Below are positions 3,913 to 10,348 of a stretch of 33,121 nt of DNA, piece by piece. Each line of letters begins with the position of its first letter. Position 1 is the first letter of the stretch. Source of the stretch: a virus (lineage: Duplodnaviria; Heunggongvirae; Uroviricota; Caudoviricetes). The stretch lies in IMG/VR virus record IMGVR_UViG_2874945390_000004; one strand, 5' to 3'. The translations under genes and the position numbers were made by a program. Below the pieces are notes generated by a model that did not search any database, was not told the origin of the DNA, and saw only the letters and a program-made list of their open reading frames with translations.

Positions 3913-4184
3913 GTATTCGTATTGAAATTGGCGAACGTTATGTCGTTACCAGTGACAGCTTTCAGTTTATTCTCCACGAGAAAAAGAGAGCGGAAAGCGG
4001 TAAAAACGCCGGTCAGGAATGGCTGTCGGTGGTTGGTTATTACCCGAAATTAAGCCAGCTCGTTTCCGGCCTGATGCATCACGATATTCTGACCGGAAGC
4101 GCAAAGTCTTTTGCTGATTTAAACGCGCAGGTTGAGCAACTCAGCAAGCGTTGTTCAGAGGCTTTTGGCTCATATGGCCGTTAA
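3909..4184 (+). CDS. Hypothetical early protein (91 aa), P2 orf83 position
   Basis: ORF whose last codons overlap the start of A. Confidence 0.6.
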   Translation: MSIRIEIGERYVVTSDSFQFILHEKKRAESGKNAGQEWLSVVGYYPKLSQLVSGLMHHDILTGSAKSFADLNAQVEQLSKRCSEAFGSYGR

Positions 4185-6459
4185 AGCCTCCGGGCGTTTT
4201 GTCCCTCCGTCAGCATTTGCCGCAGGCACCGGTGAGACGTTTACCGGTGCTTATGCATGGAACGCGCCACGCGAGGCCGTCGGGCGAGAAAGACCTCTTA
4301 CACGTGACGAGATGCGTCAGGTGCAAGGTGTTTTATCCACGATAAATCGCCTGCCTTATTTTTTGCGCTCGCTGTTTACTTCACGCTATGACTACATCCG
4401 GCGCAATAAAAGCCCGGTGCACGGGTTTTATTTCCTCACATCCACTTTTCAGCGTCGTTTATGGCCGCGTATTGAGCGTGTGAATCAGCGCCATGAAATG
4501 AACACCGACGCGTCGTTGCTGTTTTTGGCAGAGCGTGACCACTATGCACGCCTGCCGGGAATGAATGACAAGGAGCTGAAAAAGTTTGCCGCCCGTATCT
4601 CATCGCAGCTTTTCATGATGTATGAGGAACTCTGCGATGCCTGGGTGGATGCGCATGGCGAAAAAGAATCGCTGTTTACGGATGAGGCGCAGGCTCACCT
4701 GTATGGTCATGTTGCTGGCGCTGCACGTGCTTTCAATATTCCCCCTCTCTACTGGAAAAAATACCGTAAAGGGCAGATGACCACGAGGCAGGCATATTCT
4801 GCCATTGCCCGTCTGTTTAACGATGAGTGGTGGACTCATCAGCTTAAAGGCCAGCGTATGCGTTGGCATGAGGCGTTACTGATTGCTGTCGGGGAGGTAA
4901 ATAAAGACCGTTCACCTTATGCCAGTAAACATGCTATTCGTGATGTGCGTGCGCGCCGCCAGGCAAATCTGGAATTTCTTAAATCGTGTGACCTTGAAAA
5001 CAGGGAAACCGGCGAACGCATCGACCTTATCAGTAAGGTGATGGGCAGTATTTCTAATCCAGAAATTCGCCGGATGGAGCTGATGAACACCATCGCCGGA
5101 ATTGAGCGTTACGCCGCCGCAGAGGGTGATGTGGGGATGTTTATCACGCTGACCGCGCCGTCAAAGTATCACCCGACACGTCAGGTCGGAAAAGGCGAAA
5201 GTAAAACCGTCCAGCTTAATCACGGCTGGAACCATGAGGCATTTAATCCAAAGGATGCGCAGCGTTATCTCTGCCGTATCTGGAGCCTGATGCGCACGGC
5301 ATTCAAGGATAATGATTTACAGGCCTACGGTTTGCGTGTCGTTGAGCCACACCACGACGGAACGCCGCACTGGCATATGATGCTTTTTTGTAATCCACGC
5401 CAGCGTAACCAGATTATTGAAATCATGCGTCGCTACGCGCTCAAAGAGGATGGAGACGAAAGAGGAGCTGCGCGAAACCGTTTTCAGGCAAAACACCTTA
5501 ACCGGGGCGGTGCTGCGGGATATATCGCGAAATACATTTCAAAAAACATCGACGGCTATGCACTGGATGGTCAGCTCGATAACGATACCGGCAGGCCGCT
5601 GAAAGACACTGCCGCGGCTGTTACCGCATGGGCGTCAACGTGGCGCATTCCGCAATTTAAAACGGTTGGCCTGCCGACAATGGGGGCTTACCGTGAACTA
5701 CGCAAATTGCCTCGCGGCGTCAGCATTGCTGATGAGTTTGACGAACGCGTCGAGGCTGCACGCGCTGCCGCAGACAGTGGCGATTTTGCGCTGTATATCA
5801 GCGCGCAGGGTGGGGCAAATGTCCCGCGCGATTGTCAGACTGTCAGGGTCGCCCGTAGCCCGTCGGATGACGTTAACGAGTACGAGGAAGAGGTCGAGAG
5901 AGTGGTCGGCATTTACGCGCCGCATCTCGGTGCGCGTCATATTCATATCACCAGAACGACGGACTGGCGCATTGTGCCGAAAGTACCGGTCGTTGAGCCT
6001 TTGACTTTAAAAAGCGGCATCGCCGCGCCTCGGAGTCCTGTCAATAACTGTGGAAAGCTCACCGGTGGTGATACTTCGTTACCGGCTCCCACACCTTCTG
6101 AGCACGCCGCAGCAGTGCTTAATCTGGTTGATGACGGTGTTATCGAATGGAGTGACCCGGAGGTCGTGAGGGCGCTCAGAGGTGCATTAAAACACGGTCG
6201 GAGAACGCCAGGTCGTCAGCAAAGAAACGGAAGCCCGTTAAAACCACATGAAATTGCACCATCGGCCAGACTGACCCGGTCGGAAAGAATGCAAATTACC
6301 CGTATCCGCGTTGACCTTGCTCAGAACGGTATCAGGCCTCAGCGATGGGAGCTTGAGGCGCTGGCGCGTGGAGCGACCGTAAATTATGACGGGAAAAAAT
6401 TCACGTATCCGGTCGCTGATGAGTGGCCGGGATTCTCAACAGTAATGGAGTGGACATAA
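4174..6459 (+). CDS. A: Replication initiation endonuclease A (rolling-circle initiator, 761 aa)
   Basis: Start placed at MAVKASGRFVPPSAF (ATG 4174), giving 761 aa as in P2 gpA; contains the HUH-type region (PHWHMMLF) and an AAGYIAKYISK motif. Confidence 0.95.
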   Translation: MAVKASGRFVPPSAFAAGTGETFTGAYAWNAPREAVGRERPLTRDEMRQVQGVLSTINRLPYFLRSLFTSRYDYIRRNKSPVHGFYFLTSTFQRRLWPRIERVNQRHEMNTDASLLFLAERDHYARLPGMNDKELKKFAARISSQLFMMYEELCDAWVDAHGEKESLFTDEAQAHLYGHVAGAARAFNIPPLYWKKYRKGQMTTRQAYSAIARLFNDEWWTHQLKGQRMRWHEALLIAVGEVNKDRSPYASKHAIRDVRARRQANLEFLKSCDLENRETGERIDLISKVMGSISNPEIRRMELMNTIAGIERYAAAEGDVGMFITLTAPSKYHPTRQVGKGESKTVQLNHGWNHEAFNPKDAQRYLCRIWSLMRTAFKDNDLQAYGLRVVEPHHDGTPHWHMMLFCNPRQRNQIIEIMRRYALKEDGDERGAARNRFQAKHLNRGGAAGYIAKYISKNIDGYALDGQLDNDTGRPLKDTAAAVTAWASTWRIPQFKTVGLPTMGAYRELRKLPRGVSIADEFDERVEAARAAADSGDFALYISAQGGANVPRDCQTVRVARSPSDDVNEYEEEVERVVGIYAPHLGARHIHITRTTDWRIVPKVPVVEPLTLKSGIAAPRSPVNNCGKLTGGDTSLPAPTPSEHAAAVLNLVDDGVIEWSDPEVVRALRGALKHGRRTPGRQQRNGSPLKPHEIAPSARLTRSERMQITRIRVDLAQNGIRPQRWELEALARGATVNYDGKKFTYPVADEWPGFSTVMEWT
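6025..6044 (+). other. Candidate replication origin / gpA nick-site region inside the 3' part of A
   Basis: The P2 origin is known to lie inside the A coding sequence; GCGCCTCGGAGTCCTGTCAA matches the nick-site region as I recall it. Exact sequence recall is uncertain. Confidence 0.3.
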
Positions 6460-6911
6460 TGGCAAAAATTCACGAGGTAAAGCTGCACGCGAAATATTTC
6501 GACCTTGTGCTGGAAGGAAAGAAACGTGCAGAGTTCCGGAAAAATGACCGTAATTATGAGCGCGGGGACACGTTGATTTTGCATGAATGGGTGCAGGGTG
6601 TGTATACGGGGCGAAAGGTTGAAGCCCGGATAACAGATGTTACTGACCTGTCAGACTGGCTGGAAGATTATGTCTTGCTAAGTATTGAGCGGCTTAATAC
6701 AGGCGCATGTGAGATTGTGAACTGGAAAGAACTTAGTGAGCGTGGTCTGGTATTCAGAATTAATCATGAAATTATGCATCAGCTCGGCCTTGCTGTTATG
6801 TATGAACCAGAGACGGGGATGTCTGGCGGGGCAATGGTTGCCACGGATGGAGCATGGAACTATTCAGATGAACAGATGGAGCGTGCACAGCAAAACGGGT
6901 GGCTTGGATAA
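6459..6911 (+). CDS. DUF3850 / ASCH-like domain protein (150 aa)
   Basis: Start overlaps the A stop (TAATG). N-terminus KIHEVKLHAKYFDLVLEGKKRAEFRKNDRNYERGDTLILHEW resembles the DUF3850 (ASCH-like) fold family as recalled. Confidence 0.55.
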   Translation: MAKIHEVKLHAKYFDLVLEGKKRAEFRKNDRNYERGDTLILHEWVQGVYTGRKVEARITDVTDLSDWLEDYVLLSIERLNTGACEIVNWKELSERGLVFRINHEIMHQLGLAVMYEPETGMSGGAMVATDGAWNYSDEQMERAQQNGWLG

Positions 6912-7117
6912 TGCACAGAATACCAGGCGAGATACCGCACCATAAAACTAAAAATATCAAGCTGATGGCTATTGTTCAGCGTTTACAGCGGATTATGGTC
7001 AACGAAAATCTGACGCCGGATGAGCTGGTCGGGTGTGCCGAAATAGTACGGGATAATTACGGGCAGCTTAACTATATCGGTCAGTCCAGAGTTGCGCCAC
7101 CACCACGAAGACGATAG
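6911..7117 (+). CDS. Hypothetical protein (68 aa)
   Basis: ATG overlapping the upstream stop (TAATG); no recognisable motif. Confidence 0.4.
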   Translation: MHRIPGEIPHHKTKNIKLMAIVQRLQRIMVNENLTPDELVGCAEIVRDNYGQLNYIGQSRVAPPPRRR

Positions 7118-7340
7118 AGAACGCCGCCAGTCGTGAAACTTGTTTTCAGGGCTGGCGGGGTTGAACAACGAGCGAAGCGAGGCGTTAGTTGACAGACATA
7201 TTTTTACTGCGTTGGTGCCGGTTTTTGACGGTTGAAAGGAGTTAGGTTGGAGAGCTAACAACTTACAAATATTCAAAAGTAAGCATCCTGTTGCTAACAT
7301 GAGGTCGATTTTTTATGTGGATGATGTAAAAAGGATAGCT

Positions 7341-8072
7341 ATGGATACTATAATCGCTTTTCTATCACTCGCTTTTTTCGCTGCTTTCTTCATCGGGTTA
7401 ATCAAGCCATCACTGGTGCGAATGCCAAACCGCAAACGTGCAAGTGCGGTTTATCTCGGAGGAGGTTTTGTATTGAGCATAATTGGTTCAATACTCTATC
7501 CAACAGAAAAAAGCCAGCCAGTTGCTAAAACTGAAACATCAACCGTTGCAGAACACAAAGTCCAAAAAACATTCGAATATGGTGAAAAAACACTCAAGGA
7601 ATATCGGAACGAGTCAAAGAAAACACGACACGATATTGTGAATAGTTACATTGATTTTAAGGAAGTTCCAGCCACCGCGTCAGATGCGTTTTATGCCTGC
7701 ATGAGTGAGTATACATTTACCAAAGATGATGAGTTGAAACTCGGTGATGTTCTTGGGTGGTGCTTTAATGATTATGAAAATGACCCGAATTCACTAAACA
7801 ATAAAATCAATCTTGATACATTTCAGAGTAATTTTAGTGGTTGGGATGGTTCTTATCGTCCATTGGAAAAACTAATTAAAGATAATATGAACGATGATTC
7901 ATCTTATAAACATGTGTCAACGGTATATCATCTGGTTTTGAATAAAGACCCGCATGCCATTGTGAAAACCACGTTTCGCGGAACTAATGCTTATGGAGGA
8001 GTGGTGAAACAGACGATTGCTGCGCGTGTTGATATAAAAACTGGTAAGGTGATATCAATCATAGATAATTGA
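7341..8072 (+). CDS. Uncharacterised membrane-anchored protein (about 243 aa), cargo island 1
   Basis: AT-rich ORF with an AAGGA ribosome-binding site before ATG 7341 (alternative upstream starts at 7299 and 7314). N-terminus has two hydrophobic helices followed by a soluble domain with no motif I recognise. Followed by a terminator. Confidence 0.6.
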   Translation: MDTIIAFLSLAFFAAFFIGLIKPSLVRMPNRKRASAVYLGGGFVLSIIGSILYPTEKSQPVAKTETSTVAEHKVQKTFEYGEKTLKEYRNESKKTRHDIVNSYIDFKEVPATASDAFYACMSEYTFTKDDELKLGDVLGWCFNDYENDPNSLNNKINLDTFQSNFSGWDGSYRPLEKLIKDNMNDDSSYKHVSTVYHLVLNKDPHAIVKTTFRGTNAYGGVVKQTIAARVDIKTGKVISIIDN

Positions 8073-8081
8073 TATCTTACA

Positions 8082-8122
8082 ATGCCGACGCTGAATATTT
8101 AATTGGGTGTCGGCATTTTTTT
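8082..8122 (+). terminator. Rho-independent terminator
   Basis: 8-bp stem ATGCCGAC/GTCGGCAT followed by a run of seven T. Confidence 0.7.
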
Positions 8123-8182
8123 GACTATTAGAGCGGCAGAACCGAGATTTGTTACGTATGAGATTAGCACTGCGAGAATGTT

Positions 8183-8965
8183 ATGAAAGTTATAAACCAA
8201 CTTAAGAAGTTTGATAAGAAAAGAACGCCAGATGATGGCCGTATTAGTTTGTTATATGAAAACGCGATTAAGTATGATATGTACTCTGTATATATTAAAG
8301 ATAAAAATGATACAGAATACCTCTTTGACTGTTTGGTTGATGGGAAGATAAAGGCTTTTAAATGGGATGATGAGGAGCGTAGATTTCATATAAGTTCATA
8401 CTTGGATATTTCTGAGCTTACGCCTGATTCTTTTTTTGGTGTTTATTACTACCGTGCGCATGAGTTGCGATTTAACTCTTTAAATGATTTAACCTTTTTA
8501 AGGGAGTTGTTTTTTAGAGTGAAGTCTAATTATGAAAATATAAAGTTTAGTCGTGAAAAATATATTTATCGACAGCAAAAAAAAGAAATAATTGATGTGA
8601 TGCTTGTTCTCTCAACGATTATAAGAATGTATCGTGAACGGGATGCTGAAACTGTGTTTAGTGAGTTTTCAATAATGGCCGAAGTCGCTGGTAGTTTATG
8701 GGTATACCATGACGATAAAAACAGGATGCGTAAAGAGCTTCGTTTATGCCTGAATTCTCTTGTTCAGAATGGAGATCTTGTTGAAACAAGTAGTGGATTT
8801 AGGCTAACAGGAAAGGCACTGAACACAATATCTACATTCAATAAAGATGAGTTGCGGTACAGAGAGAATTTGAGCACTCAGAAGAAAATGTTTTGGGCTA
8901 CTTTTTTCGCAGCAGTCGGCGGCGTAGGAAGTATGATTGCAGCTATAATAGGGCTTCTAAAATGA
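8183..8965 (+). CDS. Uncharacterised protein with C-terminal transmembrane anchor (260 aa), cargo island 1
   Basis: AT-rich ORF; C-terminal hydrophobic segment MFWATFFAAVGGVGSMIAAIIGLL; no recognisable catalytic motif. Separate transcription unit after the terminator. Confidence 0.6.
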   Translation: MKVINQLKKFDKKRTPDDGRISLLYENAIKYDMYSVYIKDKNDTEYLFDCLVDGKIKAFKWDDEERRFHISSYLDISELTPDSFFGVYYYRAHELRFNSLNDLTFLRELFFRVKSNYENIKFSREKYIYRQQKKEIIDVMLVLSTIIRMYRERDAETVFSEFSIMAEVAGSLWVYHDDKNRMRKELRLCLNSLVQNGDLVETSSGFRLTGKALNTISTFNKDELRYRENLSTQKKMFWATFFAAVGGVGSMIAAIIGLLK

Positions 8966-9125
8966 GCCAACAAAATCGTATGATGAAGTATTGAGTGAAA
9001 AGCATTCTTTATATGCATTATTTTGCATGCAACATATGCTATACATTTTAGCTATGAATTGTCAGACGTGGCAGTACTTCTGTATGGTAATGCAACTGCA
9101 TTAAAACCGCCCCATGAAGCGGGCG

Positions 9126-9144
9126 GGCGAGGCGGGGAAAGCAC
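9126..9144. other. cos site (19-nt cohesive-end sequence GGCGAGGCGGGGAAAGCAC)
   Basis: Exact match to the P2 cohesive-end sequence as recalled, located upstream of the Q/P packaging genes as expected for P2. Confidence 0.75.
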
Positions 9145-9285
9145 TGCGCGCTGGCGGTGGTGCTGATTTTATTTTTTCAGCGTCTGAGCGCGTCGTGATG
9201 GCGTTTAGATTGTTCGCCGGGGCGTTGGCGTGTATGCGGGCTGTTTTGTGCGGTGGTGAGCGTGTGAGGGCGTGATGACGGGGTG

Positions 9286-9309
9286 TAAAAAAGCCGCCCG
9301 CAGGCGGCG
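9286..9309 (-). terminator. Rho-independent terminator downstream of Q
   Basis: On the minus strand, GC-rich stem GCCGCCTGCGGGCGGC followed by a T run, immediately 3' of the Q stop. Confidence 0.6.
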
Positions 9310-9313
9310 ATGT

Positions 9314-10348
9314 TCAGCCGTTGTCAGTGTCCAGTGAGTAGTTTTTAAAGCGGATGACCTCCTGACCGAGCCAGCCGTTTATCTCGCGGATCCTGTCCTG
9401 TAACGGGATAAGCTCATTGCGGACAAAGACCTTTGCCACTTTCTCAATATCACCCAGCGACCCGACGTTCTCCGGCTTGCCGCCCATCAACTGAAAGGGG
9501 ATGCGGTGCGCGTCCAGCAAGTCAGCGGCGCTGGCTTTTTTGATATTAAAAAAATCGTCCTTCGTTGCCACTTCACTGAGCGGGATAATTTTAATGCCGT
9601 CGGCTTTTCCCTGCGGGGCATAGAGAAACAGATTTTTAAAGTTGTTGCGGCCTTTCGACTTGACCATGTTTTCGCGAAGCATTTCGATATCGTTGCGATC
9701 CTGCACGGCATCAGTGACGTACATGATGTATCCGGCATGTGCGCCGTTTTCGTAATACTTGCGGCGGAACAGCGTGGCTGACTCATTCAGCCAGGCAGAA
9801 TTAAGGGCGCTGAGATATTCCGGCAGGCCGTACAGCTCCTGATTAATATCCGGCTCCAGCAGGTGAAACACGGAGCCGGGCGCGAAGGCTGTCGGCTCGT
9901 TGAAGGACGGCACCCACCAGTAAACATCCTCCTCCACACCACGGCGGGTATATTTTGCCGGTGAGGTTTCCAGTCTGATGACCTTACCGGTGGTGCTGTA
10001 ACGCTTTTCCAGAAACGCATTACCGAACACCAGAAAATCCAGCACAAAGCGGCTGAAATCCTGCTGGGAAAGCCACGGGTGCGGAATAAACGTTGAAGCC
10101 AGAATATTACGTTTGACGTAAATCGGTGAGCTGTGATGCACGGCAGCACGCAGGCTTTTTGCCAGACCGGTAAAGCTGACCGGTGGCTCATACCATCTGC
10201 CGTTACTGATGCACTCGACGTAATCCAGAATGTCACGGCGGTCGAGTACCGGCACCGGCTCACCAAAGGTGAATGCCTCCATTTTTGGGGCGCTGGCAGT
10301 CATTTTTTTTGCCGCAGGTTGCGGTGTTTTCCCTTTTTTCTTGCTCAT
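9314..10348 (-). CDS. Q: Portal protein Q (344 aa)
   Basis: 344-aa ORF as in P2 gpQ; start overlaps the P stop (TGATG on the minus strand). Confidence 0.95.
   Translation of the reverse strand: MSKKKGKTPQPAAKKMTASAPKMEAFTFGEPVPVLDRRDILDYVECISNGRWYEPPVSFTGLAKSLRAAVHHSSPIYVKRNILASTFIPHPWLSQQDFSRFVLDFLVFGNAFLEKRYSTTGKVIRLETSPAKYTRRGVEEDVYWWVPSFNEPTAFAPGSVFHLLEPDINQELYGLPEYLSALNSAWLNESATLFRRKYYENGAHAGYIMYVTDAVQDRNDIEMLRENMVKSKGRNNFKNLFLYAPQGKADGIKIIPLSEVATKDDFFNIKKASAADLLDAHRIPFQLMGGKPENVGSLGDIEKVAKVFVRNELIPLQDRIREINGWLGQEVIRFKNYSLDTDNG

Follow-up and report, generated by a model that had tools for sequence, protein, structure and literature searches.

Two genes in the cargo region of a P2-type prophage

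The window analyzed here is the whole stretch of 33,121 nucleotides of IMG/VR virus record IMGVR_UViG_2874945390_000004 (Caudoviricetes), which holds a P2-type prophage (integrase, C, Cox). Our subject is the cargo island between its replication genes and cos, which carries two genes that we call gene 1 and gene 2 (Table 1). An earlier reading made from the letters alone (the sequence-only reading) had described two AT-rich genes at this place, and their GC contents bear this out: gene 1 has 0.383 and gene 2 has 0.349, as compared to 0.535 in gpA, 0.528 in the portal gene and 0.517 over the whole window. GC lies between 0.31 and 0.40 over 7200..9000, versus 0.52–0.59 in the flanks. The cos sequence that limits the hotspot on the right is the single exact match in the window (zero in shuffles), and P2 cosR is annotated at the equivalent position.

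It is established that P2 and P4 hotspots yield new immune systems, and roughly half of the P2 cargo has no assigned function. On balance, we lean towards reading the island as two independent, adjacent single-gene cassettes in the gpA-cos hotspot; gene 1 would be of the exclusion type and gene 2 a tail-anchored defense candidate. Its chief value is as a pointer to a widespread family to which gene 2 belongs; the island itself is P2 hotspot cargo. Both genes have been catalogued before as candidates by Rousset et al. 2022 (Table S5B, PMC9122126), where gene 1 is P2 hotspot entry no. 12 ("2 TM", 210 occurrences) and gene 2 is entry no. 68 ("1 TM", 62 occurrences); neither entry is among the systems reported as protective in the main text of that paper. 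The supplements of Vassallo et al. 2022 contain neither protein, and a literature search by accession returned no paper.

Table 1. Features of the cargo island and its flanks (positions in the window; TM, transmembrane; ORF, open reading frame)
Feature	Position	Strand	Remark
gpA	4132..6459	+	
DUF3850/ASCH + DUF7415 gene	6459..6911	+	directly after gpA
72-aa ORF	6899..7117	+	
Border element	7118..7192	+	~70-75 bp; hairpin 7120..7162; left edge of variable cargo
Gene 1	7341..8072	+	243 aa
Gene 1 TM1	~7344..7403	+	residues ~2-21
Gene 1 TM2	~7431..7496	+	residues ~31-52
Gene 1 conserved C-terminal domain	~7572..8069	+	after disordered linker
Intrinsic-terminator-like hairpin + U run	8081..8122	+	between gene 1 and gene 2; inverted repeat
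Gene 2	8183..8965	+	260 aa
Gene 2 N-terminal six-strand beta domain	~8270..8473	+	residues ~32-97
Gene 2 PadR-like winged helix + long C-terminal helix	~8555..8806	+	winged helix at residues ~161-208
Gene 2 C-terminal TM helix	~8888..8959	+	residues ~236-259
cos	9126..9144	+	exact 19-nt P2 cohesive-end sequence; right limit of hotspot
Portal gene	9314..10348	-	terminase gene also on -

Homology of gene 1 to phage 186 orf97

Gene 1 had been taken as uncharacterized. By sequence comparison it is a homolog of orf97 of coliphage 186, and thus an already known gene with a recorded phenotype. Using tblastn against phage genomes, we found 76.6% identity to 186 Orf97 (NP_052294) over residues 22-243 (E 2e-115); the low-complexity filter masks TM1, so the alignment begins at residue 22. 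The profile phrog_3403 matches gene 1 over its full length (1-243 of 243 residues, E 1e-146), and the homology extends to the DNA (7291..8014, 75%). Pfam, NCBIfam and PADLOC scans of gene 1 gave nothing significant. In the 186 RefSeq record (NC_001317), orf97 encodes 243 aa and is the final gene before cos. Upstream of it are p95 (a promoter under LexA control), tum and a partial terminator, t95a; terminator t95b comes after it. A note on orf97 in this record reads "expression from plasmid blocks 186 infection". A paper on Salmonella prophages cites Brumby et al. 1996 for tum and orf97 as the SOS operon of 186 (PMC5322425).

An alternative in-frame ATG at 7299 would extend gene 1 to 257 aa (14 more residues). 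The start at 7341 is favored because it has an AAGGA Shine-Dalgarno sequence, gives the 243-aa length seen in nearly all homologs and agrees with the 186 annotation.

Gene 1 resembles 186 Orf97 in its length, in its two TM helices followed by a C-terminal domain, in its place just before cos and in having a terminator downstream. The two loci differ in that the window has no tum, LexA site or p95, in that gene 1 lies on the cargo side of a conserved border element (see below) and 186 orf97 on its backbone side, and in the type of prophage (P2-type here, 186-type for orf97). Membership in a LexA-controlled SOS operon downstream of tum, a trait of the 186 context and not of the protein, was not found for gene 1.

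Orf97 homologs are also found outside P2-like prophages. On the Y. rohdei chromosome, a homolog (locus L019 5082..5729) lies between an apparent cpxP and fieF-pfkA, and the homologs in Brenneria and Mixta adjoin P4-type integrases.

Predicted topology and role of gene 1

Two N-terminal TM helices in gene 1, together with a C-terminal anchor in gene 2, had been predicted from sequence, and both hydropathy and the AlphaFold models agree with this. Besides the helices, gene 1 has the other traits of the Orf97 family, i.e., a C-terminal domain with the motif WDGSYRPLE and two cysteines. The loop between TM1 and TM2 contains five basic residues. C120 and C141 are the only cysteines, and both are invariant in 31 homologs. 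Distant relatives have the two cysteines and the WDGSYRPLE motif as well, but the anchor in front of the domain differs: Oxalobacter has a lipoprotein signal peptide (LAGC lipobox), Sulfurimonas a single TM helix, and Xenorhabdus a TM helix together with a zinc ribbon. In the Oxalobacter metagenome-assembled genome (locus L027 4938..6351), the Orf97-domain lipoprotein is followed by two small predicted lipoproteins, beside a repressor-like gene. Because the cysteines are conserved and the anchors vary (lipoprotein signal, single TM helix), we infer that the domain is extracytoplasmic; in gene 1 it probably faces the periplasm and is disulfide-bonded.

With this topology, the two helices would anchor gene 1 in the inner membrane, leaving the basic loop on the cytoplasmic side and the conserved domain in the periplasm. 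Like 186 Orf97, it would exclude superinfecting P2/186-type phages, and the block would fall at or just after tail penetration, hindering the passage of DNA through the periplasm and the inner membrane. By analogy with Orf97, gene 1 is most likely a superinfection-exclusion protein. The sequence-only reading had proposed an abortive-infection or exclusion function, possibly novel; for gene 1 the homology to Orf97 supports exclusion and takes away the novelty.

Several envelope proteins of this kind have been described, such as P1 Sim, T4 Imm and Sp, P22 SieA, lactococcal Sie2009 and the Ltp lipoprotein of Streptococcus phage TP-J34. Gene 1 is like them in being a small phage protein, membrane- or lipid-anchored, with a domain that in gene 1 is probably extracytoplasmic, and they block related phages; none of them matched gene 1 by sequence or family (Pfam, PHROG annotation and PADLOC). 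Its combination of HdeA-like helices and a cystatin-like sheet is its own, unlike classical exclusion proteins. That gene 1 is instead a lysogenic-conversion envelope factor (e.g. a periplasmic chaperone-like stress protein) with no part in exclusion we regard as improbable.

Some observations weigh against the exclusion reading of gene 1. The exclusion phenotype comes from one GenBank note, on plasmid expression of a protein 77% identical to gene 1, and a literature search found no paper on Orf97 exclusion. No tum/DinI homolog was found in window-type loci, a LexA-box scan gave no match near gene 1 (7118..7340), and in a scan for the sigma-70 consensus neither gene 1 nor gene 2 had a promoter-like site immediately upstream. 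Since no LexA box matches nearby, SOS control of gene 1 as in 186 is unsupported. Of the separate upstream regions proposed for the two genes, the intergenic space is there (223 nt upstream of gene 1 and 110 nt upstream of gene 2), and promoters of their own lack support.

P2 Tin and Old occupy the same hotspot between the replication genes and cos and are likewise non-essential lysogenic-conversion cargo; they differ in being soluble and encoded on the opposite strand, while the window genes encode membrane proteins without Walker A or TOPRIM. The absence of Old-type features from both products, as proposed from sequence, stands: the best BLASTP match to Old has E 0.06 over 24 residues and the best to Tin has E 4.3, a Walker A motif is absent, and Pfam and PADLOC gave no significant hit.

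If the assignment is right, the frequent "2 TM hypothetical" of the P2 hotspot (Rousset entry 12) is the exclusion gene known from 186 as orf97, which gives it a name, a testable topology and likely targets, namely P2/186-type phages.

Fold and family of gene 2

According to its AlphaFold model (pLDDT, predicted local distance difference test, of 82), gene 2 is a tail-anchored winged-helix protein; it belongs to a large unnamed family absent from Pfam and PADLOC. The model contains, in order, a short helix, the beta domain, two long helices, the winged helix and a 50-residue C-terminal helix, the last 24 residues of which are hydrophobic; a PadR-like winged helix-turn-helix (wHTH) fold followed by a C-terminal helix is present in the model. 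Membership in PadR or a related HTH family was not detected by sequence profiles: gene 2 has no Pfam hit, and a weak match to HTH_45 (E 0.002) appears in only 2 of 56 relatives.

A full HMMER profile search assigned 658 clusters (50% identity) to the family at E <= 1e-3, and 255 at E <= 1e-10; a word-index search had found only 26 clusters. The members are nearly all 250-300 residues long and align end to end, and the C-terminal hydrophobic helix is present in 55 of the 56 sampled. No conserved catalytic motif was found in the family.

Searches against known families returned little. Pfam and NCBIfam scans of gene 2 gave nothing significant, and the 56 relatives gave stray weak matches only to Pfam and PADLOC (all single PADLOC hits with E > 0.003). 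Nothing below E 0.3 was found by sequence-profile searches of PDB. A structure search, which had been proposed as a check, was run for gene 2 with Foldseek against BFVD; no hit reached E <= 0.001, and what matched were parts of winged helices. The claim that no domain could be named thus stands as far as significant Pfam, NCBIfam and PADLOC hits are concerned, and fails for the PadR-like winged helix of gene 2. From PadR-family proteins gene 2 differs by its extra N-terminal beta domain and by having no Pfam PadR hit, and its DNA binding is putative. Lactococcal AbiP is a membrane-anchored nucleic-acid-binding Abi protein with an N-terminal anchor, whereas the anchor of gene 2 is C-terminal. 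We found no paper on a tail-anchored wHTH defense protein in a literature search.

Genomic neighborhood of gene 2 relatives and possible role of gene 2

We looked at eight genomic contexts of gene 2 relatives. In the first, a gene 2 homolog follows a complete type VI retron (PADLOC RT_VI, E 9e-106; HTH_VI, E 2e-31). This arrangement recurs in 10 complete E. coli genomes and several IMG/VR contigs, where a 55%-identical homolog lies 165 bp downstream of the retron (HTH_VI + RT_VI) in the same P2 hotspot, without orf97 (e.g. E. coli EH01-18-02, locus L049 1837..4039). A distant relative starts 1 bp after a PglX/type IIG enzyme (E 1e-133; locus L089 2..1691), and another 17 bp after an Mrr_cat protein (locus L036 5121..6837), with Shedu SduA (E 9e-115) 5 kb away; gaps of 1 and 17 bp suggest that in other lineages these relatives are coupled to restriction-type genes at the operon level. 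The remaining relatives are found near HEPN_LA2681 and SduA_C, as a lone gene where an HP1-like prophage ends, on the edge of an element with umuDC, Prim-Pol and terminase, beside ccdAB, and on a metagenome contig with an HNH gene. These neighbors are as expected of defense or moron genes, a pattern that is anecdotal.

We considered gene 2 as an effector or component of type VI retrons and rejected it: the window and most loci have no reverse transcriptase nearby, and the linkage is not obligate. The type VI retron entry of Rousset et al. consists of two genes only (PMC9122126).

Gene 2 would face the cytoplasm and act, tail-anchored and without an enzymatic motif, as a stand-alone defense protein at the inner membrane face. 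It might block establishment by binding a phage protein or the phage DNA as it enters, or the binding might trigger a membrane lesion (abortive infection). A defense role for gene 2 is reasonable, and we place it just short of an even chance. Against it we count that the eight contexts form an anecdotal pattern with no statistical enrichment, that no relative was identified for the N-terminal beta domain, and that PADLOC gave only DruD at E 0.015 for gene 2, for which PADLOC 2.0 has no model. Should the role be confirmed, gene 2 would be a compact single-gene system with an unusual sensor-at-membrane design. A further step, that gene 2 founds a new and widespread single-gene anti-phage family (at least 658 clusters in many bacteria) of tail-anchored, PadR-like putative DNA-binders that capture injected DNA or convert recognition into membrane failure, is possible and doubtful.

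The chief rival to a defense role is a regulatory or DNA-tethering one, in which gene 2 would be a transcription factor or a DNA-tethering protein held at the membrane, with a part in the regulation of prophage, host or neighboring immune genes or in genome maintenance; we hold this, too, as a tentative possibility. It fits the PadR/MarR-like winged helix, after which comes a long helix of the kind found in PadR dimers, and the lack of an enzymatic or pore-forming domain. Regulators with a wHTH are common next to defense operons. P2 hotspots also carry non-defense cargo such as partition systems and toxins (PMC9122126). It fits less well with the position of gene 2, which is usually the last or sole cargo gene with no obvious operon to regulate, with the conservation of the TM anchor across the family despite the lack of an extracytoplasmic sensor, and with its recurrence in hotspots and at element edges, typical of morons and defense genes. 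As a regulator, gene 2 would represent a new class of defense-island-associated, membrane-tethered wHTH proteins. As a defense candidate or as a regulator, it points to a large unnamed membrane-anchored winged-helix family that recurs beside retrons, BREX/type IIG enzymes and Shedu.

Terminator, border element and independence of the two genes

A terminator between the two genes had been noticed in the sequence, and folding supports it: the hairpin at 8081..8117, with a U run to 8122, has -21.4 kcal/mol (z = -6.35), and none of 200 shuffles was as stable. The border element forms a hairpin of -36 kcal/mol (z -3.2) and matches P2, Wphi, 186, Yersinia P2-like phages and many relatives. In phage 186 and many 186-like prophages it lies just downstream of orf97 (186 locus 4345..4413), and variable cargo, including gene 2 homologs, comes after it; in the window, unlike 186, it lies upstream of gene 1. 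Because the border element is on opposite sides, one and the same gene, orf97, counts as backbone within an SOS operon for the 186 lineage and as movable cargo for this P2 lineage. The proposal of swapped cargo thus applies to gene 1 here and not in 186-like phages, where it belongs to the tum-orf97 SOS operon. The border element looks like the joint for cargo exchange; it may be a recombination joint of the hotspot, or a processing or termination site.

Among 5426 complete E. coli genomes, 95 contain gene 1, 16 contain gene 2-like sequences, and 6 contain the pair as in the window (including IHE3034, MS7163 and APEC O78). In phage 186, in several phages of Yersinia, Salmonella and Erwinia, and in Kluyvera, gene 1 has no cargo partner ahead of the portal gene, and in other loci unrelated cargo follows it. 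We rejected an obligate two-gene system because each gene occurs without the other.

A looser version, in which the two genes form one two-component system (e.g. a periplasmic sensor signaling to a cytoplasmic or membrane effector), is to us very improbable. The gene order is kept in Enterobacter, Klebsiella, Cronobacter and many 186-like IMG/VR contigs (about 21 of 36), with 54-79% protein identity, and gene 2 homologs that follow a gene 1 homolog in many 186-like prophages are 54-62% identical. Yet a strong terminator separates the genes in the window, and the conserved border element sits between their homologs in 186-like phages. Gene 1 is 186 backbone and usually without gene 2 (95 vs 6 of the E. 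coli genomes), and in about 15 of the 36 contigs the gene 2 homolog follows gpA directly, tum directly or a type VI retron, not gene 1; no gene 1 is nearby in any of the distant contexts examined. In Rousset et al., too, each of them has a single-gene entry of its own. We therefore keep to two independent cassettes.

In P22H4, S164 and P24A7b, the slot after orf97 is taken by another 2-TM family (loci L001 4054..4752, L002 4052..4699 and L003 4168..4866, respectively). Its members are 24-29% identical, contain two N-terminal TM helices and a beta-rich C-terminal domain, and have no Pfam or PADLOC hit. Nothing significant came from Pfam, NCBIfam and PADLOC scans of alternative cargo genes.

Other features around the island

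An Rfam scan of 6800..9400 gave no family near the gathering score. The product of the gene directly after gpA (150 aa) is DUF3850/ASCH, an RNA-binding-like domain, fused to DUF7415; P2 Orf91, at the matching place, is shorter (110 codons including the stop). On the minus strand, the first terminator-like site, after the portal gene, is at 9293..9308, and a second one, a GC-rich hairpin with a T run at 9107..9126, abuts the left end of cos.
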